Shown one piece after another: positions 1,819 to 11,787 of a DNA stretch of 64,000 nt. The stretch is taken from assembly GCA_002009975.1 (NCBI GenBank), contig MTLP01000042.1, positions 160,001 to 224,000 of the forward strand, given 5' to 3'. The translations under genes and the position numbers were made by a program. Origin of the DNA: Thermococcus sp. JdFR-02 (lineage in GTDB: Archaea; Methanobacteriota_B; Thermococci; Thermococcales; Thermococcaceae). Position 1 is the first letter of the stretch, and every line of letters begins with the position of its first letter. The notes below the pieces were generated by a model. The model was not told the origin of the DNA and ran no database searches. It saw only the letters and a list, made by a program, of their open reading frames with translations.

Positions 1819-2385
1819 ATGAAGCGCATATTAGCCATAGTTTTCTTAATTGTCTTTATTTCGTCTATTGTTGTTGCTGATGAGGAGTATGGAGAAGAGG
1901 ATGAAGCGGGGTATGCAGGCTTAGCTGAATTCGGATTTGTTTTAATAACGATAGGTATTGTGCTATACTCTTTGGTGAAAAGAACACCATTCATTGCCTT
2001 TAAAAAAGAGAAAGAGATAAGCATACATCTAAGTGCAACAATGCCTTTTGTCAAGATTGCATTCCCTCTTTCCCTCTTGGATATTCATCATGTATTTACG
2101 ATAATAGGTTCCCTATTAACAGTTCCACACTTTCTCTCATGCAACGATTACAGCACTCCTTTTGGTCTAACTGGACTTCTTTTGGGGATAGTCCTTCTAG
2201 GAGAGAACATAAGCGGCTTTTATGGTAGGTATCTGCACGGAAAAATAGAAAGATTGAGAAGACAAATAGAGCATCCTTTATTAAAAGAACTTCTAAAAAA
2301 GTTTAGAGCATGGAGAACTTTTCACATTGCATGGACTATTCTGCTGTACCTTCTTTTAGCACTCCACGTTGCCTTTGCAGACTAA
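1819..2385 (+). CDS. Membrane protein with two His pairs (ferric-reductase/cytochrome b-like TM domain)
   Basis: Signal-like N-terminus, acidic DEEYGEEDE, TM helices bearing HH-x12-H and H-x13-H. Confidence 0.55.
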   Translation: MKRILAIVFLIVFISSIVVADEEYGEEDEAGYAGLAEFGFVLITIGIVLYSLVKRTPFIAFKKEKEISIHLSATMPFVKIAFPLSLLDIHHVFTIIGSLLTVPHFLSCNDYSTPFGLTGLLLGIVLLGENISGFYGRYLHGKIERLRRQIEHPLLKELLKKFRAWRTFHIAWTILLYLLLALHVAFAD

Positions 2386-3202
2386 TTTTTGGTTCTTTTT
2401 TATAGGCTTTAAGCACTAAATAGAGCCCGAAGATTAAATATCCAAGTTGGAGTATAACTCTTCCCCATTCCATTTTTGTTGAATAACCAAACAGCACAGC
2501 AAATATCGAACCTATTGCTCCTTTATGGGACCAAATACTCTCCTTTGGAATTCCCAAATCATAGGCAGTTTGAGCAAACCAGCCCAAGCTAACTCCTTCT
2601 TCCTCTGCAAATTCGATTAGCTCATGTGTCCCATAACCCAAAAGTCCAGCGGCAACAAAGATTAGCAATATTGAGCTGTAGTAAAAGAATGTTCTGAGGT
2701 TAATTTTCATTCCAATGCCATAGATAGCGTAAGCTAACACTAGCGCTCCAGCTGAACCAAGAATTAATCCCAAGAAAGTTCCACTCAAATCTTGAGTTGC
2801 AAAAGGTGTCAAGAATAGAACAGTCTCTAAACCTTCTCTAAAGACCACTATGAATGTAAACACTATTAAAGCCCAGGGATTTATTGCTTGGGAGACTTTT
2901 CTCTCTATCTCAGCTTTTAGATTCTTTCCCTTTGTTGCCATCCAGTAGATCATGCTCGTTAGAACTATTACAGCTAAGTAAGAGGCGATTCCTTCAAAGA
3001 GTTCTTTCTCTCTTAAACCTCCATAAATCGTTAATATTGCTCCGCCCAAAGCTATGCTGGCAAACGCTGACAAACCAACCCCAATCCAAACATCCCTAAC
3101 TTGTTTCTCTCTTCCAGTTCTTTTTAAGTAAGCAATTATTATAGCAACGATTATGGCAGCTTCGAGAACTTCTCTAAATGTAATCAGAAATTGCCCCAAC
3201 AT
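2336..3202 (-). CDS. ftr1: FTR1 family iron permease
   Basis: Two RExxE motifs (FREVLEA, FREGLET), multiple TM helices, GGAGG RBS. Confidence 0.92.
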   Translation of the reverse strand: MLGQFLITFREVLEAAIIVAIIIAYLKRTGREKQVRDVWIGVGLSAFASIALGGAILTIYGGLREKELFEGIASYLAVIVLTSMIYWMATKGKNLKAEIERKVSQAINPWALIVFTFIVVFREGLETVLFLTPFATQDLSGTFLGLILGSAGALVLAYAIYGIGMKINLRTFFYYSSILLIFVAAGLLGYGTHELIEFAEEEGVSLGWFAQTAYDLGIPKESIWSHKGAIGSIFAVLFGYSTKMEWGRVILQLGYLIFGLYLVLKAYKKEPKISLQRQRGVLKEGTAE

Positions 3203-3346: not shown

Positions 3347-4456
3347 TCAAAGGAAAGCTGAACTGTCAAAAGGAGTCACGTTCTCAAGCTTTTTACCTAC
3401 TATAAACGTGTCTTCTTTTTTCACAGCCCCTTCTGGAATCATAAGGGGTGCATGAACCATTGCCAATGCCATTCCCTCTTGAATTTTCATCGCTCTATGA
3501 GGAACCACTATCGTAGTTATCGGATCTTCTTCGATTAAAAGCCCAACTCCATGAGCATACCCCGTTATATAGTACTCTTGGAGGTTCTTTCCATTATAAA
3601 TCTTGGCTATTTCCCTTTCCACTTGAGCAAAAATAACTCCGGGCAAAGTTTTTTCTAAGACTGTTTGGTAAGCCTCTTCCATAGCCTCAATTGCATCTTT
3701 TGCCCTTTTATTTGGCTTTCCGATGAAAAAGCTCCTCGTTAGATTTGCGTAATAATAGTTGTGGTCAGCGCCTATCACAACCGTTACAAATTTTCCCTTT
3801 TCAACTTTAACATCCTTAAAAGGCTCAGCATGTGCTCTGGGGGTAGCTGAAACATAAACCTTAGGCTCTTCACTTCCATTAAGCATCAACTCCCTATAAA
3901 CTTCAGCTGCTATTTCAAGCTCGCTCTTTCCGGGTTTTATGTTCTCTATAGCGACTTCCATTCCCCTAATTGCTATTTTTCCCGCTTTCCTTATATTATC
4001 CAGCTCCCACTCATCCTTTATCATTCTAAGCTGCATTGATAGAGGTCTTATATCTACTACTTCTACACCTGGATTTAGTCTTTTAAAAATCTCCAGGAAA
4101 AGGATGTATGCATCTCGTTCAATGGAGTACTCCATGCCGATGGTGTTGTAGCCATTTCTTCTAATCCACATGGTTACACTTGCCATTAAATCTTCAGTTT
4201 TTTGAAATTCCTCGACATTTTTAATCCAGCTTTTCTTCATAAACAATTCTCTCTCGCCCTTTGCTACTATAACAGTTGGCTCACCTTCGGCTGGAATTAA
4301 TAAGGCAGGTCTAAGCCATTTAACACCAGTAAAATAAATATAGGTGGAGAGGGTTCTTATAACGGCTCCATCTATATTGTTTGCCTTTAAAAGTTCTTGA
4401 AATCTTTTAACTCTTTTCCTAAATATTTTTTCCATGAACTTCACCATAGTTATCAT
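3347..4456 (-). CDS. M24/creatinase-fold (Xaa-Pro peptidase-like) protein with degenerate metal ligands
   Basis: Creatinase_N-like N-domain, LRMIKDEWELDNIRKA, GYAHGVG, KEDT. Confidence 0.8.
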   Translation of the reverse strand: MITMVKFMEKIFRKRVKRFQELLKANNIDGAVIRTLSTYIYFTGVKWLRPALLIPAEGEPTVIVAKGERELFMKKSWIKNVEEFQKTEDLMASVTMWIRRNGYNTIGMEYSIERDAYILFLEIFKRLNPGVEVVDIRPLSMQLRMIKDEWELDNIRKAGKIAIRGMEVAIENIKPGKSELEIAAEVYRELMLNGSEEPKVYVSATPRAHAEPFKDVKVEKGKFVTVVIGADHNYYYANLTRSFFIGKPNKRAKDAIEAMEEAYQTVLEKTLPGVIFAQVEREIAKIYNGKNLQEYYITGYAHGVGLLIEEDPITTIVVPHRAMKIQEGMALAMVHAPLMIPEGAVKKEDTFIVGKKLENVTPFDSSAFL

Positions 4457-4794
4457 TCAAGTATCTTACCTTTAATTTTTTGTTTTGGTGTTTTGACAAC
4501 CAAAAATCGCATTGTTATGTTTCCGCTGTTTATAACTTTGTGAGGGATATCTTTTGGCAAATAAACAAGCTCATCTTTTTTAACTTCCTCTTTCTCCTCC
4601 CCAACTTCAACTATACCTTTTCCTTTGAGCACATAGACAAAAGCATCTACTGGAGTAACATGTCTTTTGAGTTCTTCTCCGGGCTTTAAAGTCACATGCA
4701 TGACTTGAACATGCTCACTTTCAAATAATTTCTTGACTTCAACTCCATGAGGGGTTTCAACTTTTTGAGCTTCTTCTATCTTTACAAGTATCAT
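4453..4794 (-). CDS. Cupin domain protein
   Basis: LKPGEELKRHVTP...VLKGKG and PKDIPHKVIN cupin motifs. Confidence 0.88.
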   Translation of the reverse strand: MILVKIEEAQKVETPHGVEVKKLFESEHVQVMHVTLKPGEELKRHVTPVDAFVYVLKGKGIVEVGEEKEEVKKDELVYLPKDIPHKVINSGNITMRFLVVKTPKQKIKGKILE

Positions 4795-4806
4795 AAAACC
4801 ACCTCC

Positions 4807-6135
4807 TCACTTCCAATCCAAGAGCCTCTTTTCTCCTTCAAGTTTCCTAATTTCAGTTACATCCTGGGTAACTTCAAGAGTTCCCAAATAATTTCCATCC
4901 TCATCTCTAACAGGGAAGTACCTTATATGGACAAATCTTCCATTCATCTGAATCCAGAATTCAGCGACATCTCTTCTTCCTTCCTTGAATTCCTTCAAGA
5001 TTTTGTTAACTATGTGAACGCTCTTTGGTGGATGACAAAGCTGGACAGGTCTTCCAATTACTGAATGGGTTCTGGTGAATATTCTATCCCCTCCAGAGAA
5101 GAATCTAACTCTATCATCTTTGTCAATAAAGGTGATGTCCACGGGCAGGGTCTTGAATATTGCGTTTATCTCTTTTGGGGATAAATAACCAACATCAAGT
5201 TCTAAGTCGCCCTCTTTTTTGGCCTTTTGTCTATCAGCTTCAAGTGTTTGTCCTTTCAAAGCCATTTGTACTTCCTTAGGTAGGCTTAAAAGCTGCTCAG
5301 CAGTTAAAGTTGGATCTATCTCATAGGGGTGTAAAGGCTTTGATTTTGGCTTCCATTCATTTCCAGGCTTAACTTTGTAGTAGCCTATCTCATCTTCTTG
5401 TTCCCTAATAGCAACCCATTCGCCTTCTGAAAGCAGGGCTTCCAATGTTGGGTAAAAGATGTTGTTCTCCCTAAAGACCATGTCTATCAGGGCTATTGAA
5501 AGCTCTTGGGCTAACTCCTTAACTTTTCTGGTAAACTCCTCCCATTCCATTTCTTTCTCTTTATAAAGGAGCTGATTTAGCTGTCTGATCTTAAACCTAA
5601 TCTCATCGTGCTTGGTCCATAAAACGGTTGGCACTGCTGTAATTCCTCTCCTCTCGATGTAGGGAAATAGCAGCATCTCCTCTCTATTGTAGTGTGTTCT
5701 TCCAATTAGAGCCAGTTCTTTAGCTAATTGCCTTAGATATTCGAGAATTTCCTTTTTCATTTTTTCATCCTTTGTGTTCGCCAGAGTATTTGCATAAAGG
5801 TTAAGCATTTCTGCATCCTTAGTTATCTGATCATTTTCCATATAGAGCGTATGAAGGGGATGACCTTTTGGAATACCCTTAATATCCAAAGCCCCGCTAA
5901 CGGATTCCCTGAAAAGCTCAACGTGAATATCACACATCTTTGCTATTTCCTTAGCAGAAATGCCTTCCTTTACGAGCTCCTGCTCAATTAAAGGGATTTC
6001 TAATGGAGAGATACTCCTAAGCAAGGCTTTAAACTGTTCTTTAAGCTCATTAACATCTTTTCCCTCATGGATTTGCTTTAAAAGATTCTTTAACTGTTCT
6101 TTTTTGTATTCTCTATTTTTTAAAAGTTCGGTCAT
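4807..6135 (-). CDS. DUF438 / hemerythrin-like / PAS_10 domain protein (start revised to MTELLK at 6135)
   Basis: MCDIHVELF, GHPLHTL..EN, HYNREE.LLFP, LWTKHDEI, RENNIFYP, C-terminal PAS (CHPPKS); GGTGA RBS at 6141-6145 precedes ATG 6135. Confidence 0.85.
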   Translation of the reverse strand: MTELLKNREYKKEQLKNLLKQIHEGKDVNELKEQFKALLRSISPLEIPLIEQELVKEGISAKEIAKMCDIHVELFRESVSGALDIKGIPKGHPLHTLYMENDQITKDAEMLNLYANTLANTKDEKMKKEILEYLRQLAKELALIGRTHYNREEMLLFPYIERRGITAVPTVLWTKHDEIRFKIRQLNQLLYKEKEMEWEEFTRKVKELAQELSIALIDMVFRENNIFYPTLEALLSEGEWVAIREQEDEIGYYKVKPGNEWKPKSKPLHPYEIDPTLTAEQLLSLPKEVQMALKGQTLEADRQKAKKEGDLELDVGYLSPKEINAIFKTLPVDITFIDKDDRVRFFSGGDRIFTRTHSVIGRPVQLCHPPKSVHIVNKILKEFKEGRRDVAEFWIQMNGRFVHIRYFPVRDEDGNYLGTLEVTQDVTEIRKLEGEKRLLDWK

Positions 6136-6156
6136 TTTTATCACCCTGTTTCTGTC

Positions 6157-6172
6157 TATGACATATGTCATA
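6157..6172. promoter_or_regulatory. Operator 1, perfect palindrome TATGACATATGTCATA
   Basis: Read directly; between minus-strand TTTAAA box (6182-6187) and DUF438 RBS. Confidence 0.8.
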
Positions 6173-6219
6173 TTTTGCATTTTTAAACTTTTCTACCCAA
6201 ATTTGTCCAGTAAAATTTA

Positions 6220-6235
6220 TATGACACGTGTCATA
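6220..6235. promoter_or_regulatory. Operator 2, perfect palindrome TATGACACGTGTCATA
   Basis: Read directly; overlaps TTTATAT box (6216-6222) of the 6255 gene. Confidence 0.8.
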
Positions 6236-6254
6236 AAAACTAATAGGTGAAAAA

Positions 6255-6752
6255 ATGAATATAAAAGTAGTGTTAGATTTGAGAGATTTAAGTCCTCAAG
6301 AAGCAACAGTCAGAATAGCTGAAGCAATTGAAGATTTGAAAAAAGGAGAGGTCATTGAAGCTATATGTTCAAAACCTTTTGAAAATCTGCTTTCAAAGTT
6401 AGAAGAGGCTGGATATAAGTATGAGGTTAGAAAGGTAAAAGAGTTCTATGTGCTTAGAATTTGCCATACTGCAAATGTGAAAGGAAGAATCAGAGTTGAG
6501 GAACATCAGGAAAAAGGAGAACTTGAGATAAATGAAAACACCAATGTCGGAAAACTTATAGAGAGATATCCAAAAGCGGTAGATATTCTTGCAAAATATG
6601 GTTTCACCCCCCTCAAAAACCCAATCCTCAGAAAAACTTTAGCAAAAACGATAACATTGGGACAAGCAAAGCGTATTGGACATCTTTCTGATGAAAGATT
6701 TCAAGAACTTTTAAAAGAATTAAAAGAGCTTAAAGATGAGAAAAACAGTTAA
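6255..6752 (+). CDS. TusA-like N-domain fused to DUF1858 domain
   Basis: VLDLRDLSP start; INENTNVGKLIERYP.AVDIL..YGF..L.NP.LR C-domain. Confidence 0.7.
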   Translation: MNIKVVLDLRDLSPQEATVRIAEAIEDLKKGEVIEAICSKPFENLLSKLEEAGYKYEVRKVKEFYVLRICHTANVKGRIRVEEHQEKGELEINENTNVGKLIERYPKAVDILAKYGFTPLKNPILRKTLAKTITLGQAKRIGHLSDERFQELLKELKELKDEKNS

Positions 6753-8077
6753 TCAAGCTCTTCAGCAAATTTTGGACTCTCTTCAACTTCAATTCCTTTA
6801 TTTAGCATTTCTCTTAAGTCTTTCTCTGGTTCTGTTGTTAGTTTTAAGTCAAACTCCTTTTTAAGAATGTCAAAGATTCCTGGTGTCAGAAACTCTGGGG
6901 GTCTTGGACCAATATAAATTCCCTTGACTCCCAAATAGAGCAAAGTGTAAAGTATTCCAATTGCTTTTTGCTCCATCCATGAAAGGACTATTGAAACTGG
7001 TAGTGAATTTACATCAGTTCCAAATTCCTGAGCTAAAGCTAAGGCTATCTGTACGATTGAATAGACATTATTACACTGACCGAAGTCAAGGAATCTTGGA
7101 ATGCCTTCTATTGTTCCATAATCCCTTGCATTATACCTGAACTTTCCACATGCAGCACTTAATATTATAGCGTCCTCTGGGATAAGTGATGTTAGCTTCT
7201 CATAGTAGCTCATCTTTGGATCAGGTGTATCACATCCACCGATAACAAATATGTGTCTAATCTTGCCCTCTTGGATTAATTCAATAAGCTTATCCTTCAT
7301 GGCTAATATGTTTGTGTGATGGAATCCTGTGAGAAGTTTTCCTCCCTCTTTTCTCTCCATTTTTGGTGTTTTCAAAGCCCTCTTTATTAATGGTTCAAAG
7401 TTGTAATCCTCTATATGTGGAACTCCTTCAAGACCCGCTATGCCAACGGTAAAGATTCTATCTGCATAGGCTCTTGTTGGTTGCTGTACACAGTTGCTTG
7501 TGCCCAAAATAACTCCTGGGAACTCCATAAATTCCTTCTTCTGGTGTAACCAACTTCCACCCCAATTTGCCACAAGATGATCGAACTTCTTAAATTCAGG
7601 ATATGCATGGGCAGGAAACATCTCTGCATGGGTGTAAATTTTTATGTTAGTTCCTTCTGTTTGCTTTAAAAGCTCATAGAGAGCTTTGTAACTGTGTCCC
7701 GTTACCAAAACACCATATCCTTTTTCTGTTCCTGTCGAAACCCAAGTGGGCTCCGGTCTTCCAAACGTTTCTACATATGCCCTATCCAGAAGTTTCATGG
7801 CTTCAAGATGAATTCTACCATTTTCAAGTATTAATTCCAAGAATCTATTCTTATTGAAGTTAACGTTAGTTAATGTCGAATACAGAGCTTCAGCCAAAAA
7901 ATGCCCGATTTCCTCATTATCATAACCAACTTCCAAAGCATGGTAATAATAAGCGGCTGTTCCTTTAATTCCATACAACAAAGCTTCTTGAAGAGCATTT
8001 AAATCAGGATCTTTTCCACATACTCCTTGAATCTTACATCCTCCAACCAAACTCATAGAGCATTGATTACATAGCAT
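6749..8077 (-). CDS. hcp: Hybrid cluster protein (hydroxylamine/NO reductase), short form
   Basis: CNQC..C..GVCGK cubane motif, VTGH, YTHAEMFPAHAYP, SNC, GGCD, ACGKFRYN, DFGQCN, SWMEQKA. Confidence 0.95.
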   Translation of the reverse strand: MLCNQCSMSLVGGCKIQGVCGKDPDLNALQEALLYGIKGTAAYYYHALEVGYDNEEIGHFLAEALYSTLTNVNFNKNRFLELILENGRIHLEAMKLLDRAYVETFGRPEPTWVSTGTEKGYGVLVTGHSYKALYELLKQTEGTNIKIYTHAEMFPAHAYPEFKKFDHLVANWGGSWLHQKKEFMEFPGVILGTSNCVQQPTRAYADRIFTVGIAGLEGVPHIEDYNFEPLIKRALKTPKMERKEGGKLLTGFHHTNILAMKDKLIELIQEGKIRHIFVIGGCDTPDPKMSYYEKLTSLIPEDAIILSAACGKFRYNARDYGTIEGIPRFLDFGQCNNVYSIVQIALALAQEFGTDVNSLPVSIVLSWMEQKAIGILYTLLYLGVKGIYIGPRPPEFLTPGIFDILKKEFDLKLTTEPEKDLREMLNKGIEVEESPKFAEELD

Positions 8078-8095
8078 CTTTTACACCTCCTTATT

Positions 8096-8111
8096 TATGA
8101 CGCGTGTCATA
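8096..8111. promoter_or_regulatory. Operator 3, TATGACGCGTGTCATA
   Basis: Read directly; between hcp TATA (minus TTTTATAC, 8139-8146) and GGAGG RBS. Confidence 0.8.
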
Positions 8112-8286
8112 TGTGCGATATTATTTATTGCTCATTTAGTATAAAAGCATTTCCATTGTTTAACCTAAAAACAAAATTTTGCATTATAAATTAGGAGAAA
8201 ACGTAATAGTTATATTAATATTTTATCACCATGTGTTACATATTTTCGCAAAAATCCAATTATGAAAAATTTTTCATTAATTTTTC

Positions 8287-8302
8287 TATGACAAGCGTCA
8301 TA
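8287..8302. promoter_or_regulatory. Operator 4, TATGACAAGCGTCATA
   Basis: Read directly; perfect 6-bp arms in the middle of the hcp-regulator intergenic region. Confidence 0.75.
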
Positions 8303-8431
8303 ACAAGAAAAAGAGGCGAGCATACCTTTAGTTATTACAAAAAACAATTTGCAAAAAAGTAACAAAGGGATACAATCGTCAAACTTATGTCCATACCAAT
8401 AAACTCATATGAGAGTGTCGAAACCCTTATA

Positions 8432-8447
8432 TATACCACATGTCATA
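8432..8447. promoter_or_regulatory. Operator 5 (degenerate), TATACCACATGTCATA
   Basis: Perfect right arm, 4/6 left arm; overlaps the TTATATA box of the HTH gene, ending 10 nt before its ATG. Confidence 0.6.
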
Positions 8448-8457
8448 AAAATACTCC

Positions 8458-8853
8458 ATGAAAGTTACAGCCTTTGAAGTTGCATCTCGTTATGTTTACC
8501 CCTCATTGAGGAGAAGGTTAGTGGAGATTTTGTACAAAGAACATAAATTAAGCCAAGTAAAGGTTGCGGAGCTTCTGCACATAACCCAACCAGCTGTTTC
8601 AAGGTATTTGAAAATGGACAGAGGAGCCTTGGTGGATGTAAAAAAATTCAAGGATATAGATGAGAAACTTAAAGAGTTGGCAAAAAAAGTGCTTGAAGAA
8701 AACCTAAATGAGTATGAAATTCATTCTGAATTAGTTAGGATTTCTCTTGAAATGCTTGGAAAAGGTTACATATGTTCATTTCATGAAAAAATAGACAAAG
8801 AAATTGATCCCAAAAAGTGCAACATCTGCATTTCCCTCTTTGAAAAATTTTGA
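8458..8853 (+). CDS. Xre-like HTH transcriptional regulator (COG2522-like) with C-terminal Cys/His motif
   Basis: LSQVKVAELLHITQPAVSRYL HTH; C-terminal CSFH...CNIC; appears leaderless. Confidence 0.85.
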   Translation: MKVTAFEVASRYVYPSLRRRLVEILYKEHKLSQVKVAELLHITQPAVSRYLKMDRGALVDVKKFKDIDEKLKELAKKVLEENLNEYEIHSELVRISLEMLGKGYICSFHEKIDKEIDPKKCNICISLFEKF

Positions 8854-8915
8854 TGAAAAACTCTTCATAAATTTCTTTTTAAACCCTTTTCTTTGACCTT
8901 ATCTTGGGTGAGAAA

Positions 8916-9260
8916 ATGGACGAGCTTGAGATGATTAGGAGAAAAAAGATGCTCGAATTGATGAAAAGAATGAGTGGAGTTAAAGTTGAGAGACCAAAGC
9001 CAAAGGCAGTAATTGAAGTTATAACTTCACCTACCTGTCCCTATTGCCCAATTGCACTTCAAATAGCAAGGGAAATAGCGAGAAAGTACAGAGGAGTAGA
9101 AGTTAGAGAGCTGAGCGTTGCAACTCCAGAAGGAAGAGAAAAAGCAATGAGGCATAACATCTTGGGGACTCCAACAATTTTGATTAATGATAGGGTTGAG
9201 TTCATAGGGGTTCCTTCACCAATAGAATTTGAAAGAAGGATAAAAGCCTATTTAAGCTAA
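8916..9260 (+). CDS. Thioredoxin/glutaredoxin family protein
   Basis: CPYC active site, GTPT cis-Pro motif, DELEMIRRKK helical N-tail; GGTGA RBS. Confidence 0.88.
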   Translation: MDELEMIRRKKMLELMKRMSGVKVERPKPKAVIEVITSPTCPYCPIALQIAREIARKYRGVEVRELSVATPEGREKAMRHNILGTPTILINDRVEFIGVPSPIEFERRIKAYLS

Positions 9261-9493
9261 CCGCCACTTAAAACGGGCATTACTTTTATTTCATCCTCAT
9301 CTTTTATCAGATAATCGCCTTTTACTGGTCTTCCATTTACAATGATTATTTTGTCATGCAACTTGTCATAGTCTCTGATGATCCCTCTAAGTAACTCATC
9401 CACCGTTTTCGGCTCTTCAAGCTTTAAATAAACTTCATGGGCTTTAGCTAAGTGTGCCATACTCCCAATAAGCCTGACCTTGACCATGATCAT
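9257..9493 (-). CDS. moaD: MoaD/ThiS (SAMP-like) sulfur carrier
   Basis: IIVNG, IKVMPVLSGG C-terminal diglycine; downstream of tungstoenzyme. Confidence 0.85.
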   Translation of the reverse strand: MIMVKVRLIGSMAHLAKAHEVYLKLEEPKTVDELLRGIIRDYDKLHDKIIIVNGRPVKGDYLIKDEDEIKVMPVLSGG

Positions 9494-9603: not shown

Positions 9604-11463
9604 TCATTCAAGCTTTGTAACCTTCTCAAGCTCTGGGATAACGTAGTCCAAGTTAAGCTCTTTGAGTGTCTCCTTCTTTGGAATACCTCTCTCATCCCAT
9701 CCTCTAAGCTTGTAGTACTCTGAAAGCAAGGCATCGTACTTGTCTTCCTCTAAGTGTGATCCCTTTAGTTTTCCGCTCTTTAAGCTCTCGACAAACCATC
9801 TCTTTGGTGGATAGTCCATCTTCCTATCCCAGTTGCCGTTGAATTCTCTAACCCAGTAAGCCCTTATAAGAGCATAAACCCTATCTGCTGCTTTGTAGAG
9901 GTCGTCCCATGTGTACTTAACCCCAGTAATTGCTTCTAAGAACTTTGGATACCACTCTAATGTTAATCCTATTTCTACCCATGGTAACCTACAAGCGGTA
10001 AGCATCTCGAAGAGTCCGCCTCTAAGTCTTTGCAACTCAATAACCTTTGCTGCCTTCTCTGGATCGTAGGTTATCTTGTACTCAACTTCCTTCTTTTGCT
10101 CTCCTTCAATTGGTGCTGTTCCGATTTCCCATGCAATTACCCAAGCTTCCTTGTGGTGAGCACCAATTGATGATGTTGCAAATGCCAATGCCATTGCTGG
10201 GTAGGCAAAACAGTTGTAACCACTAACCTCTAAGCCCTTAACATGCATTGCAAACTCTTCGCCGCCGATCTTTTGTGATGCCCTCATTACTCCCTCAGCT
10301 AAGAGGCTTCCAAGTTCTCCTCTTCTATAAGCAATGTCCAAGGCAAGTTCCTTAGCCTTCTTATAGTCACCAAAGTGTATTCCATCATCTAATAATCCCT
10401 TTTCAGTTGCTTCCATTGCAAATGCCAAGACACCACCCAATGAAATCGTATCCATACCCATTTGGTCAGCTATTCTGTTTAGTACAGAAACTCTGTTTAG
10501 GTTAGCTATTCCTAAGTTTGAACCAAGTAAAGCAACGTTTTCATAGTCAAGTTCACTTTCTTGAGCCTCTGCATCCAAAACTACGTTACCACATTGCATG
10601 TTACAGTAGGGACAGCCTCTTCTATCAACCTTCATACCCTCTAGAGTGTAACCATCAATTGTTCTCGCAAACTCGAAGTATCCATCACTAAAGTTCCTTG
10701 TTGGTAAAGCACCATTTTCTTGTGTCCATTCAACAGCTGCCATTGTTCCTTGCCTAATCCAGAAGTCATAGGCTGGCTTTTCTTGTATCTCATTAAACGC
10801 TTCCTTTGAATACTCCATAAGCTTCTTCTTGTCAGCAACTGGGATTTCCTTTGTACCCTTAATCACAACAGCTTTTAGGTTCTTGCTTCCCATCACTGCA
10901 CCCATTCCAGGTCTTCCACCGGCTCTACCCTCTTGGGAGATAATAACAGCAAATTTAACTAAATTCTCACCAGCAGGACCTATGCTTAGAATTCCTACAT
11001 TTTTGCCATGAACTTCCTTCAATTTTCTCTCGGTTTCAAAAGTATCCAGTCCCCATAGCCCCTCTGCACTTAAAATGCTAACATTGTCATTTTCGACATA
11101 AACATAGACTGGTTTCTTTGCTTTACCCTCAATAACGATTGCATCATAACCAGCTTTTCTTAAGTGAACAGTTGCCATAGTTCCTAAGTTACCATCACCA
11201 TAACCATTTGTTAATGGACTTTTAGCTGCAACCACTAATTTTCCACCACTCGGTGTTGGGAGACCGTTGAACGGTCCAGCAGCAAAGATTAACTTATTTT
11301 CTGGGCTTAATGGATCAACACCCTTAACTTCATCCCAAAGAATCTTTATGGCTAAACCTCTACCACCTATAAATTGTTGGGCAATGTCTGGAGAATATTC
11401 TTGCACCCACGTTTTGTTGTTGGTTAAATCAACTCTTAAAATTCTTCCCCACCAGCCTTTCAT
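9604..11463 (-). CDS. for: Tungsten formaldehyde:ferredoxin oxidoreductase (AOR family), 619 aa
   Basis: [13 protein letters not shown] start, [44 protein letters not shown]. Confidence 0.9.
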
Positions 11464-11787
11464 AGAAACCACCATATTTCATAAAGATGAAATTCTATAA
11501 AAGCTTTGAGTTCACAAAAATCTTTACCCTCCTAAATTATTGAAAACAGCAATGTTTAACGATTTTTAACAAGTAACTTTTCTTGTTTATCAAAAATTTT
11601 CGAAGAATTTACACCATATAAAAGCCTTAACGAATAGATTACATTCATTAATGTCCAAAGTCGAACAAGAAAAATCAAAAACAAATAATAAAGATCTTGC
11701 TATTTTTGAGATGATTGTTTGACTCTACTCTTCTAACTGTTTGAAGGAAAAATTTAAATACATATAATGGAAAAGCAATGATGATGG

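Follow-up and report, generated by a model that had tools for sequence, protein, structure and literature searches.

The subject of this study is a 64,000-nt stretch of the genome of Thermococcus sp. JdFR-02 (positions 160,001 to 224,000 of contig MTLP01000042.1), which is called the window in the following. A 16-bp palindrome, TATGAC-N4-GTCATA, recurs in this window in the promoters of a gene cluster around hcp, the gene for the hybrid cluster protein. These sites form a real and strongly conserved operator set. It is likely that the palindrome is the operator of a 131-aa helix-turn-helix (HTH) protein encoded at the same locus, and that this protein is an autoregulated repressor of a small, local regulon which is derepressed under stress. 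The pattern points to an on/off switch, not described so far, for genes of O2 and nitric oxide (NO) detoxification. To our knowledge there is no description of hcp or flavodiiron gene switching in strictly anaerobic hyperthermophilic archaea. The regulon is compact and highly specific and comes with a candidate regulator and defined operators. An ortholog of the regulator (P0031) is present in the genetically tractable Pyrococcus furiosus, and the question is therefore directly testable. Furthermore, the regulon ties DUF438-hemerythrin-PAS, DUF2249-DUF1858, cupin and M24 proteins to the same proposed stress response.

Occurrence and conservation of the palindrome

The exact pattern is found four times in the window, at 6157, 6220, 8096 and 8287, and not once in 100 dinucleotide-preserving shuffles of it (mean 0.00, maximum 0). 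If up to two mismatches are allowed, the sole additional match in the 64 kb is a degenerate site at 8432. The resulting total of five compares with 1.19 expected and was reached in none of the 100 shuffles. The same five positions had been listed in a first-pass annotation, which was made from the letters of the sequence. No other exact copy is present in the whole genome (2,362,347 bp, 44 contigs), and elsewhere in it the pattern has five matches with one mismatch, compared to three for a reversed control pattern. A search of Rfam gave no match across window positions 6000-9000.

A position matrix was built from 72 sites of related loci (L001, L005-L027, L035-L037, L040 and L041) and used to scan the genome. 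The operator consensus is TATGACA-N2-TGTCATA. The six best scores in the genome, 28.8 to 20.0, belong to the five window sites and to one site on another contig, G000:C6:42205. The latter scores 23.8 and the degenerate site 8432 scores 20.0, while the next score genome-wide is 14.9. Among 3000 random 270-bp windows none reached 16 (maximum 13.8). Two weak matrix matches within a coding region, G000:C2:191944 and 192016, were dropped. The site G000:C6:42205 lies 3 nt past a TATA box and directly before the gene of a flavodiiron protein (FDP; G000:C6:41469-43406, corresponding to L042:2470-4407). This gene is divergent from a rubrerythrin gene and encodes a metallo-beta-lactamase-like ODP domain and a flavodoxin domain. 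Judged by its site, the FDP gene belongs to the regulon and adds to the set proposed in the first-pass annotation.

For comparison we used 97 mutually related genomes of the family to which the strain belongs. The exact pattern occurs in them at 68 sites in 49 genomes, the reversed control at nine. Nearly all exact sites (66 of 68) precede an hcp, HTH or DUF438 start by no more than 400 bp, and the 67th is in a DUF1858/DUF438 promoter. The 68th, G092:C101:1156, was judged a chance match; it overlaps the start of an AbrB/MazE-like open reading frame on a 2.6-kb contig. A variant of the pattern, CATGACANNTGTCATA, has 50 sites in 47 genomes and no control match. Of these, 44 could be assigned by coordinates: 32 to DUF438 (all 9-16 bp before the ATG), seven to FDP, three to hcp and two to the HTH gene. 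Two further sites are DUF438 promoters, and three are situated about 1.19 kb upstream of DUF438, where relatives have the FDP gene. One variant site (L087:2028-2043, G107:C58:34727) is found between a P-type ATPase gene and an MFS transporter gene, 72 bp ahead of the latter, and may represent either an extra regulon member of that genome or a chance match.

A similar picture emerges from a promoter table, for which a site scoring at least 17 within 260 bp upstream of the gene start was counted. Such a site was found for hcp in 24 of the 24 genomes examined (all at least 18.7), for the HTH gene in 30 of 31, for DUF1858 in 13 of 13, for the operon-type FDP in all 12 with sequence available, and for DUF438 as first operon gene in nine of nine genomes with an HTH ortholog. 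In the lone HTH exception the gene stands directly behind DUF1858. In relatives the DUF438 operon begins with an FDP gene. Thirteen genomes, among them the present one, have a distance of 63 bp between the two operators of the divergent DUF1858/FDP-DUF438 promoters, and a 520-bp contig carries an operator pair spaced by 87 bp. The other FDP type was seen at 19 loci, with a site only in the two where the FDP gene adjoins the HTH gene. The FDP of the present genome shares only 36-40% identity with the operon-type FDP of the relatives, so that this regulon member was apparently replaced and not moved. At the first 22 ortholog loci the motif was present in every case, with hcp divergent beside the HTH gene in 18 and DUF1858/DUF438 in two. 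Across about 70 genomes, the sites at orthologous promoters are conserved between diverged flanks.

Of the 97 genomes, 72 encode an ortholog of the HTH protein, with 56-72% identity. The source names of the orthologs are Thermococcus, Pyrococcus and Palaeococcus plus one Pyrodictium record, and their annotations are generic. Exact sites occur in 49 of the 72 genomes with an ortholog and in none of the 25 without. All 72 also have hcp or DUF438, and 19 of the 25 have neither. The latter include six exceptions. Three of these assemblies are incomplete (78-82%), a fourth genome has its hcp where a contig starts, a fifth has no more than a DUF438 fragment interrupted by a stop, and the sixth is complete. 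Targets which are unlinked to the HTH gene keep the operator as well. This holds for hcp at a distance of about 536 kb (G001) and 1.5 Mb (G058) and for the DUF438 operons of G001, G011, G041 and G020; the cases are drawn from two genera. The opposite situation is seen in G047, a complete genome in one contig, for which no HTH ortholog was found. It keeps DUF438-M24 with intact B recognition element (BRE), TATA box and Shine-Dalgarno sequence, but the operator has decayed, and no site scoring at least 13 was found within 7.5 kb around these genes (L079 = G047:C1:190000-197500). Regulator gene, operator and targets are thus gained and lost jointly.

The first-pass annotation had suggested looking for the motif upstream of orthologous hcp and DUF438 genes and for its co-occurrence with the HTH ortholog. 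Both were found, the motif also upstream of orthologous DUF1858 and HTH genes, and it is nearly confined to these promoters. Its naming of the set as an hcp regulon needs to be modified: hcp is a target, but the DUF438 operon accompanies the regulator most constantly, being present in 70 of the 72 genomes with an HTH ortholog compared to 49 for hcp, and the FDP gene has to be added. In three relatives hcp is apparently broken (fragments in G014, locus L010; two in-frame stops in G110; one TAG in G048), and all three have kept the HTH gene along with its site.

Promoter architecture

The genes of the locus which are assigned to the regulon are the following.

3347..4456, minus strand: M24 (creatinase/prolidase-type) metallopeptidase, 369 aa, third gene of the DUF438 operon
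4453..4794, minus strand: cupin_2 protein, 113 aa, second gene of the operon, overlapping the next one by 4 bp
4807..6135, minus strand: DUF438-hemerythrin-PAS_10 protein, 442 aa, first gene of the operon
6255..6752, plus strand: protein of 165 aa with N-terminal DUF2249/TusA-like and C-terminal DUF1858 domain
6749..8077, minus strand: hcp, hybrid cluster protein (hydroxylamine reductase family), short form of 442 aa
8458..8853, plus strand: HTH protein P0001, 131 aa, candidate regulator

The hcp product matches Prismane with 388.7 bits and TIGR01703 with 644.7 bits, the latter over model positions 121-522. In the relatives the cupin gene likewise comes after DUF438, and so does the M24 gene, even where DUF438 is unlinked to the HTH gene. 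The hemerythrin domain of the DUF438 protein shows a weak resemblance to the Fe-S repair proteins DnrN/RIC.

The operators and TATA boxes are given below. TATA and BRE assignments were read from the sequence and from alignments, and transcription starts were derived from the TATA positions.

6157..6172: operator O1, TATGACATATGTCATA, in the minus-strand promoter which serves the DUF438-cupin-M24 operon; the TATA box is 7 nt upstream of it, and the ATG (6135) follows after 21 nt
6180..6187, minus strand: TATA box TTTAAAAA of the DUF438 operon, with a purine-rich BRE upstream (6188-6194); same BRE/TATA in relatives
6214..6221, plus strand: TATA box AATTTATA of the DUF2249-DUF1858 gene
6220..6235: operator O2, TATGACACGTGTCATA, palindromic over all 16 bp, shares 2 nt with the 3' end of the TATA box that serves the DUF2249-DUF1858 gene
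8096..8111: operator O3, TATGACGCGTGTCATA, downstream of the hcp promoter and ahead of the Shine-Dalgarno sequence and ATG of hcp (8077, minus strand)
8140..8146, minus strand: hcp TATA box TTTTATA, in a block kept in seven of seven aligned intergenic regions
8287..8302: operator O4, TATGACAAGCGTCATA, middle site of the hcp-HTH intergenic region; the site is conserved in relatives, its flanks are not
8426..8433, plus strand: TATA box CTTATATA of the HTH gene, with the BRE CGAAAC at 8419-8424
8432..8447: operator O5, TATACCACATGTCATA, degenerate, putative autoregulatory site, overlapping the TATA box of the HTH gene by 2 nt, with its end 10 nt ahead of the ATG at 8458

If the DUF438 gene starts at 6135, all five sites fall between genes, as claimed in the first-pass annotation. 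The longest DUF438 open reading frame, with its start at 6180, would include the site at 6157. The start at 6135 is supported: orthologues align from residue 1 of the 442-aa form, a Shine-Dalgarno sequence (GGGTGA) is found 5 nt ahead of the ATG, and 32 other genomes have their operator 9-16 bp ahead of the DUF438 ATG.

The claim that four sites sit on or downstream of TATA boxes holds for O2 and O5, which overlap the box, for O1 at a distance of 7 nt and for O3 at 28 nt. Together with the FDP site these four have the geometry typical of archaeal repressors and are placed in what we regard as repressor positions, while O4 does not fit. The 63 bp between O1 and O2 correspond to the spacing mentioned above, and O2 has the best matrix score of the genome (28.8). 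O3 lies 28 nt downstream of the hcp TATA box which is conserved in relatives, or 8 nt from a non-conserved AT-rich box. With the conserved box it is therefore expected at about the transcription start or slightly beyond. The left half of O5 is degenerate because it merges with the HTH gene's TATA box; BRE/TATA and the right half-site are invariant in the alignment. The transcript of the HTH gene is probably leaderless or nearly so. In the aligned hcp-HTH intergenic regions no conserved promoter element was seen beside O4, which may be an auxiliary or cooperative site or belong to a second promoter.

About 10 nt upstream of the hcp BRE/TATA a further block, 8156-8165 (minus reading GGTTAAACAA), is conserved in seven of seven aligned intergenic regions. 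In relatives the block has partial palindromic symmetry (GGTT...AACC), and another regulator may bind there. A strain which is about 97-98% identical carries a G>A exchange at 6228, in the spacer of the operator, with both half-sites intact. Among the RNA-library contigs of this strain, breaks near 8126-8140 were seen in one sample only, and one contig has a 27-nt deletion at 6406, within the DUF1858 gene.

The candidate regulator and its family

In the candidate regulator the HTH is N-terminal (residues about 18-53) and is followed by a helical middle part. Near the C-terminus it carries the motif G-Y-x-C-x2-H-x3-D-x7-C-x2-C, in which C106, H109, D113, C121 and C124 are invariant in 29 sequences. 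Pfam gave only weak and generic matches (HTH_24 with 22.6 bits, HTH_3 with 22.3 bits). Sequence and profile searches of solved structures likewise retrieved generic HTH matches only, the best being PagR (E = 5.4e-4). In a profile search 1403 representative clusters (50% identity) were found at E <= 1e-3. By these matches the family is broad, archaeal and widespread and has no Pfam model of its own; the regulon described here offers a first functional handle on it. The C-x2-H...C-x2-C motif is kept in 112 of the 127 full-length representatives listed, and in several others a Cys replaces the His.

Some representatives are much longer (303-323 aa) and match profile positions 6-127. The present genome encodes a ThiN-fused paralog of 305 aa (G000:C2:209315-210232, L073:816-1733), which matches residues 13-125 of the HTH protein with E = 2.7e-9 and 31% identity. 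This paralog is presumably a thiamine-responsive regulator. The His and the last Cys of the metal motif are missing in it, while two ThiN-fused representatives (P0193 and P0245) retain the Cys3-His motif. According to this full-length homology to a module of about 125 aa, the DNA-binding module of the ThiN-fused regulators is the sole family link of the HTH protein. The module is shared with ThiR-type regulators. In contrast to these, the HTH protein ends at residue 131, has no ThiN match and has other predicted target genes.

More distant members of the family adjoin an SBF/Acr3-type permease (L028:226-1819) or the quinolinate synthase NadA (L029:1408-2693). One in Thermoproteota is part of an operon with S-adenosylhomocysteine hydrolase, radical SAM and HD genes (L090:2928-4929). 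This suggests a family of local regulators with varied targets. As the operon of the Thermoproteota relative is unrelated, the link to hcp and FDP is specific to the present orthologous group.

A more far-reaching, though less probable, reading takes the HTH protein as the first member of this family open to characterisation and its invariant Cys3-His(-Asp) site as a sensor whose metal or Fe-S centre is labile to redox changes or NO. The Thermococcales orthologs would then be a functional archaeal counterpart of NsrR and HcpR, working together with the co-regulated hemerythrin-PAS protein, and elsewhere in the family neighbouring genes would be switched in response to metal(loid)s or redox state. 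The site is, on the other hand, a family-wide feature and is therefore not to be assumed to be an NO or O2 sensor; it may be a structural metal site instead.

The regulon functionally resembles several known systems, and the protein lacks the domain matches by which each of their regulator families is recognized. NsrR is a small dimeric repressor with a cysteine-ligated centre, an NO-sensitive [4Fe-4S] cluster held by three Cys and one non-Cys ligand. In bacteria this Rrf2-type protein keeps hcp and other NO-detoxification genes off via a palindromic operator (PMC1274295). A small regulator, a palindromic operator and hcp are also found here, and the Cys3-His site is, from the sequence, a candidate for such a centre. 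Unlike NsrR the HTH protein has no Rrf2 match in Pfam or NCBIfam, its operator differs and it works with the archaeal transcription machinery. HcpR, a Crp/Fnr-type protein of anaerobic bacteria, activates transcription and combines a haem or effector-binding domain with a C-terminal HTH. It is a dedicated regulator of hcp and its neighbours and often encoded beside them (PMC1274295, PMC12750200). The dedicated regulator gene near hcp is common to both systems. In contrast to HcpR, the HTH protein has 131 aa with an N-terminal HTH, no cNMP_binding or HTH_Crp match, and sites in predicted repressor positions. In methanogens MsvR is an autoregulated, cysteine-containing redox regulator with a V4R domain, whose operators overlap promoters. 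It is divergent from an oxidative-stress operon which starts with a flavodiiron-type gene, and hcp is not known to belong to its regulon. The present regulator is likewise archaeal, with proposed autoregulation, cysteines, a flavodiiron target and operators on promoters, but it has no V4R match, belongs to a different HTH family and recognizes a different motif, if our assignment is correct. It also stays below the family threshold of the ArsR/SmtB metalloregulators, with 19.2 bits for NF033788 (cut-off 55). In spite of this sub-threshold score, some database records label the orthologs as 'ArsR family'.

That no regulator with this motif had been described, as presumed in the first-pass annotation, agrees with our literature search, which covered the main parts of papers available in full text and gave no description of the motif, the regulator or the regulon. 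In their main texts, the review of P. furiosus transcription factors (PMC6316755) and the CopR paper (PMC7830388) do not list these genes.

Proposed mechanism and alternative explanations

We propose that the 131-aa protein binds the 16-bp palindrome, most likely as a dimer, and represses transcription. Since the sites with an assignable TATA box are on it or just downstream of it, over the expected start, the bound protein would block recruitment of RNA polymerase after binding of TBP and TFB. The regulon would be small and nearly closed, with hcp, the DUF2249-DUF1858 gene, the DUF438-hemerythrin-PAS/cupin/M24 operon, the FDP gene and the gene of the regulator itself. HCP and FDP are reductases of NO, hydroxylamine and O2. 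A nitrosative or oxidative stress regulon is most likely, and de-repression would most likely be caused by nitrosative or oxidative (O2) stress because the products are NO-, O2- or hydroxylamine-reducing or di-iron proteins. Sensing of the signal may reside in the invariant Cys3-His(-Asp) site of the regulator itself or in a sensor-like protein of the same regulon. In bacteria, DUF1858 and DUF2249 proteins are part of N-oxide circuits: such proteins take part in nitrate sensing in Thermus (PMC6282519), and a DUF1858 gene in Bradyrhizobium is strongly NnrR-dependent (PMC6710368). The first-pass annotation had already taken the adjacent HTH protein for an autoregulated repressor of this set. Comparative genomics supports that assignment; binding by the protein, repression and the NO/O2 signal are what we infer.

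Several points weigh against this reading. The matrix scores are circular in the source loci because the matrix was made from those same sites, and independent tests are confined to L043-L086. The genomes are akin to each other, and counts across them overstate independence. The phyletic pattern would also fit some other regulator which was lost along with the locus. With regard to the promoters, O4 has no recognisable adjoining promoter, and with the conserved hcp TATA box O3 falls downstream of the start, in a geometry unlike that of O2 and O5. RNA-library contigs of the strain mentioned above span all of 4800-9300 and give no starts, strands or levels. The Cys3-His site is common in the wider family, including ThiN-fused members and members beside unrelated genes, and the data single out none of NO, O2, peroxide or iron/Fe-S status as the signal.

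Of the alternatives, the first leaves the binding of the HTH protein to the operators untouched and moves the sensing to the co-regulated DUF438-hemerythrin-PAS or DUF2249-DUF1858 protein, which would detect O2, NO or an N-oxide and free the repressor by contact, the Cys3-His site being structural. We regard this as possible, though rather improbable. It agrees with the constancy of DUF438 as companion (70 against 49 of 72 for hcp), with the sensor-like domains of the DUF438 protein (hemerythrin and PAS_10, di-iron, no output domain) and with the retention of Cys3-His in family members that have other sensors or neighbours. In addition, the DUF2249 and DUF1858 domains occur in the Thermus proteins DrpA and DrpB, proposed nitrate sensors that modulate regulators (PMC6282519). 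A sensor under control of its own repressor is however unusual, if not without precedent, the contact between regulator and partner is purely hypothetical, and in G101 the HTH gene and hcp with its operator are present while DUF438 was not found.

It is unlikely that a different regulator encoded elsewhere, for instance a TrmB-like one, binds the palindrome and that the HTH gene is just one of its targets. It has in its favour that other palindromic hexamer-pair operators are known in this order. From one of them, the TrmBL1 glycolytic motif with its 5-nt spacer, the present motif differs by its GAC/GTC cores and its 4-nt spacer. What speaks against such a regulator is the site in front of the HTH gene itself in 30 of 31 genomes, the lack of exact sites in all 25 genomes without an HTH ortholog, and the operator of the HTH-less G047, which decayed while the target operon and the core promoter remained. 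Moreover, the HTH gene is the only DNA-binding gene consistently present at the locus.

Just as little probability is given to the HTH protein acting on these sites as an activator or dual regulator, for example by activation from O4. Other regulators of this order are known to activate or repress depending on position, and O4 indeed precedes the BRE/TATA of hcp as well as that of the HTH gene, but five of the six sites in the genome lie on or downstream of a TATA box, and the DUF438 sites of 32 genomes are found 9-16 bp before the ATG, where the polymerase must sit. Finally, chance repeats or the ends of mobile or repeat elements, which have nothing in their favour beyond the sequence being a repeat, can practically be dismissed given four copies against none expected, the conservation at orthologous promoters with diverged flanks, and the absence of an Rfam match.

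The matrix scan indicated no operator near an FTR1-type iron permease gene (2336-3202), just downstream of the M24 gene, or near an aldehyde:ferredoxin oxidoreductase gene (9604-11475). Between the latter and the HTH gene lies a thioredoxin/glutaredoxin-like gene (8904-9260); no operator was seen before it, and its homolog is located about 0.2-1.7 kb from the HTH gene in several relatives.

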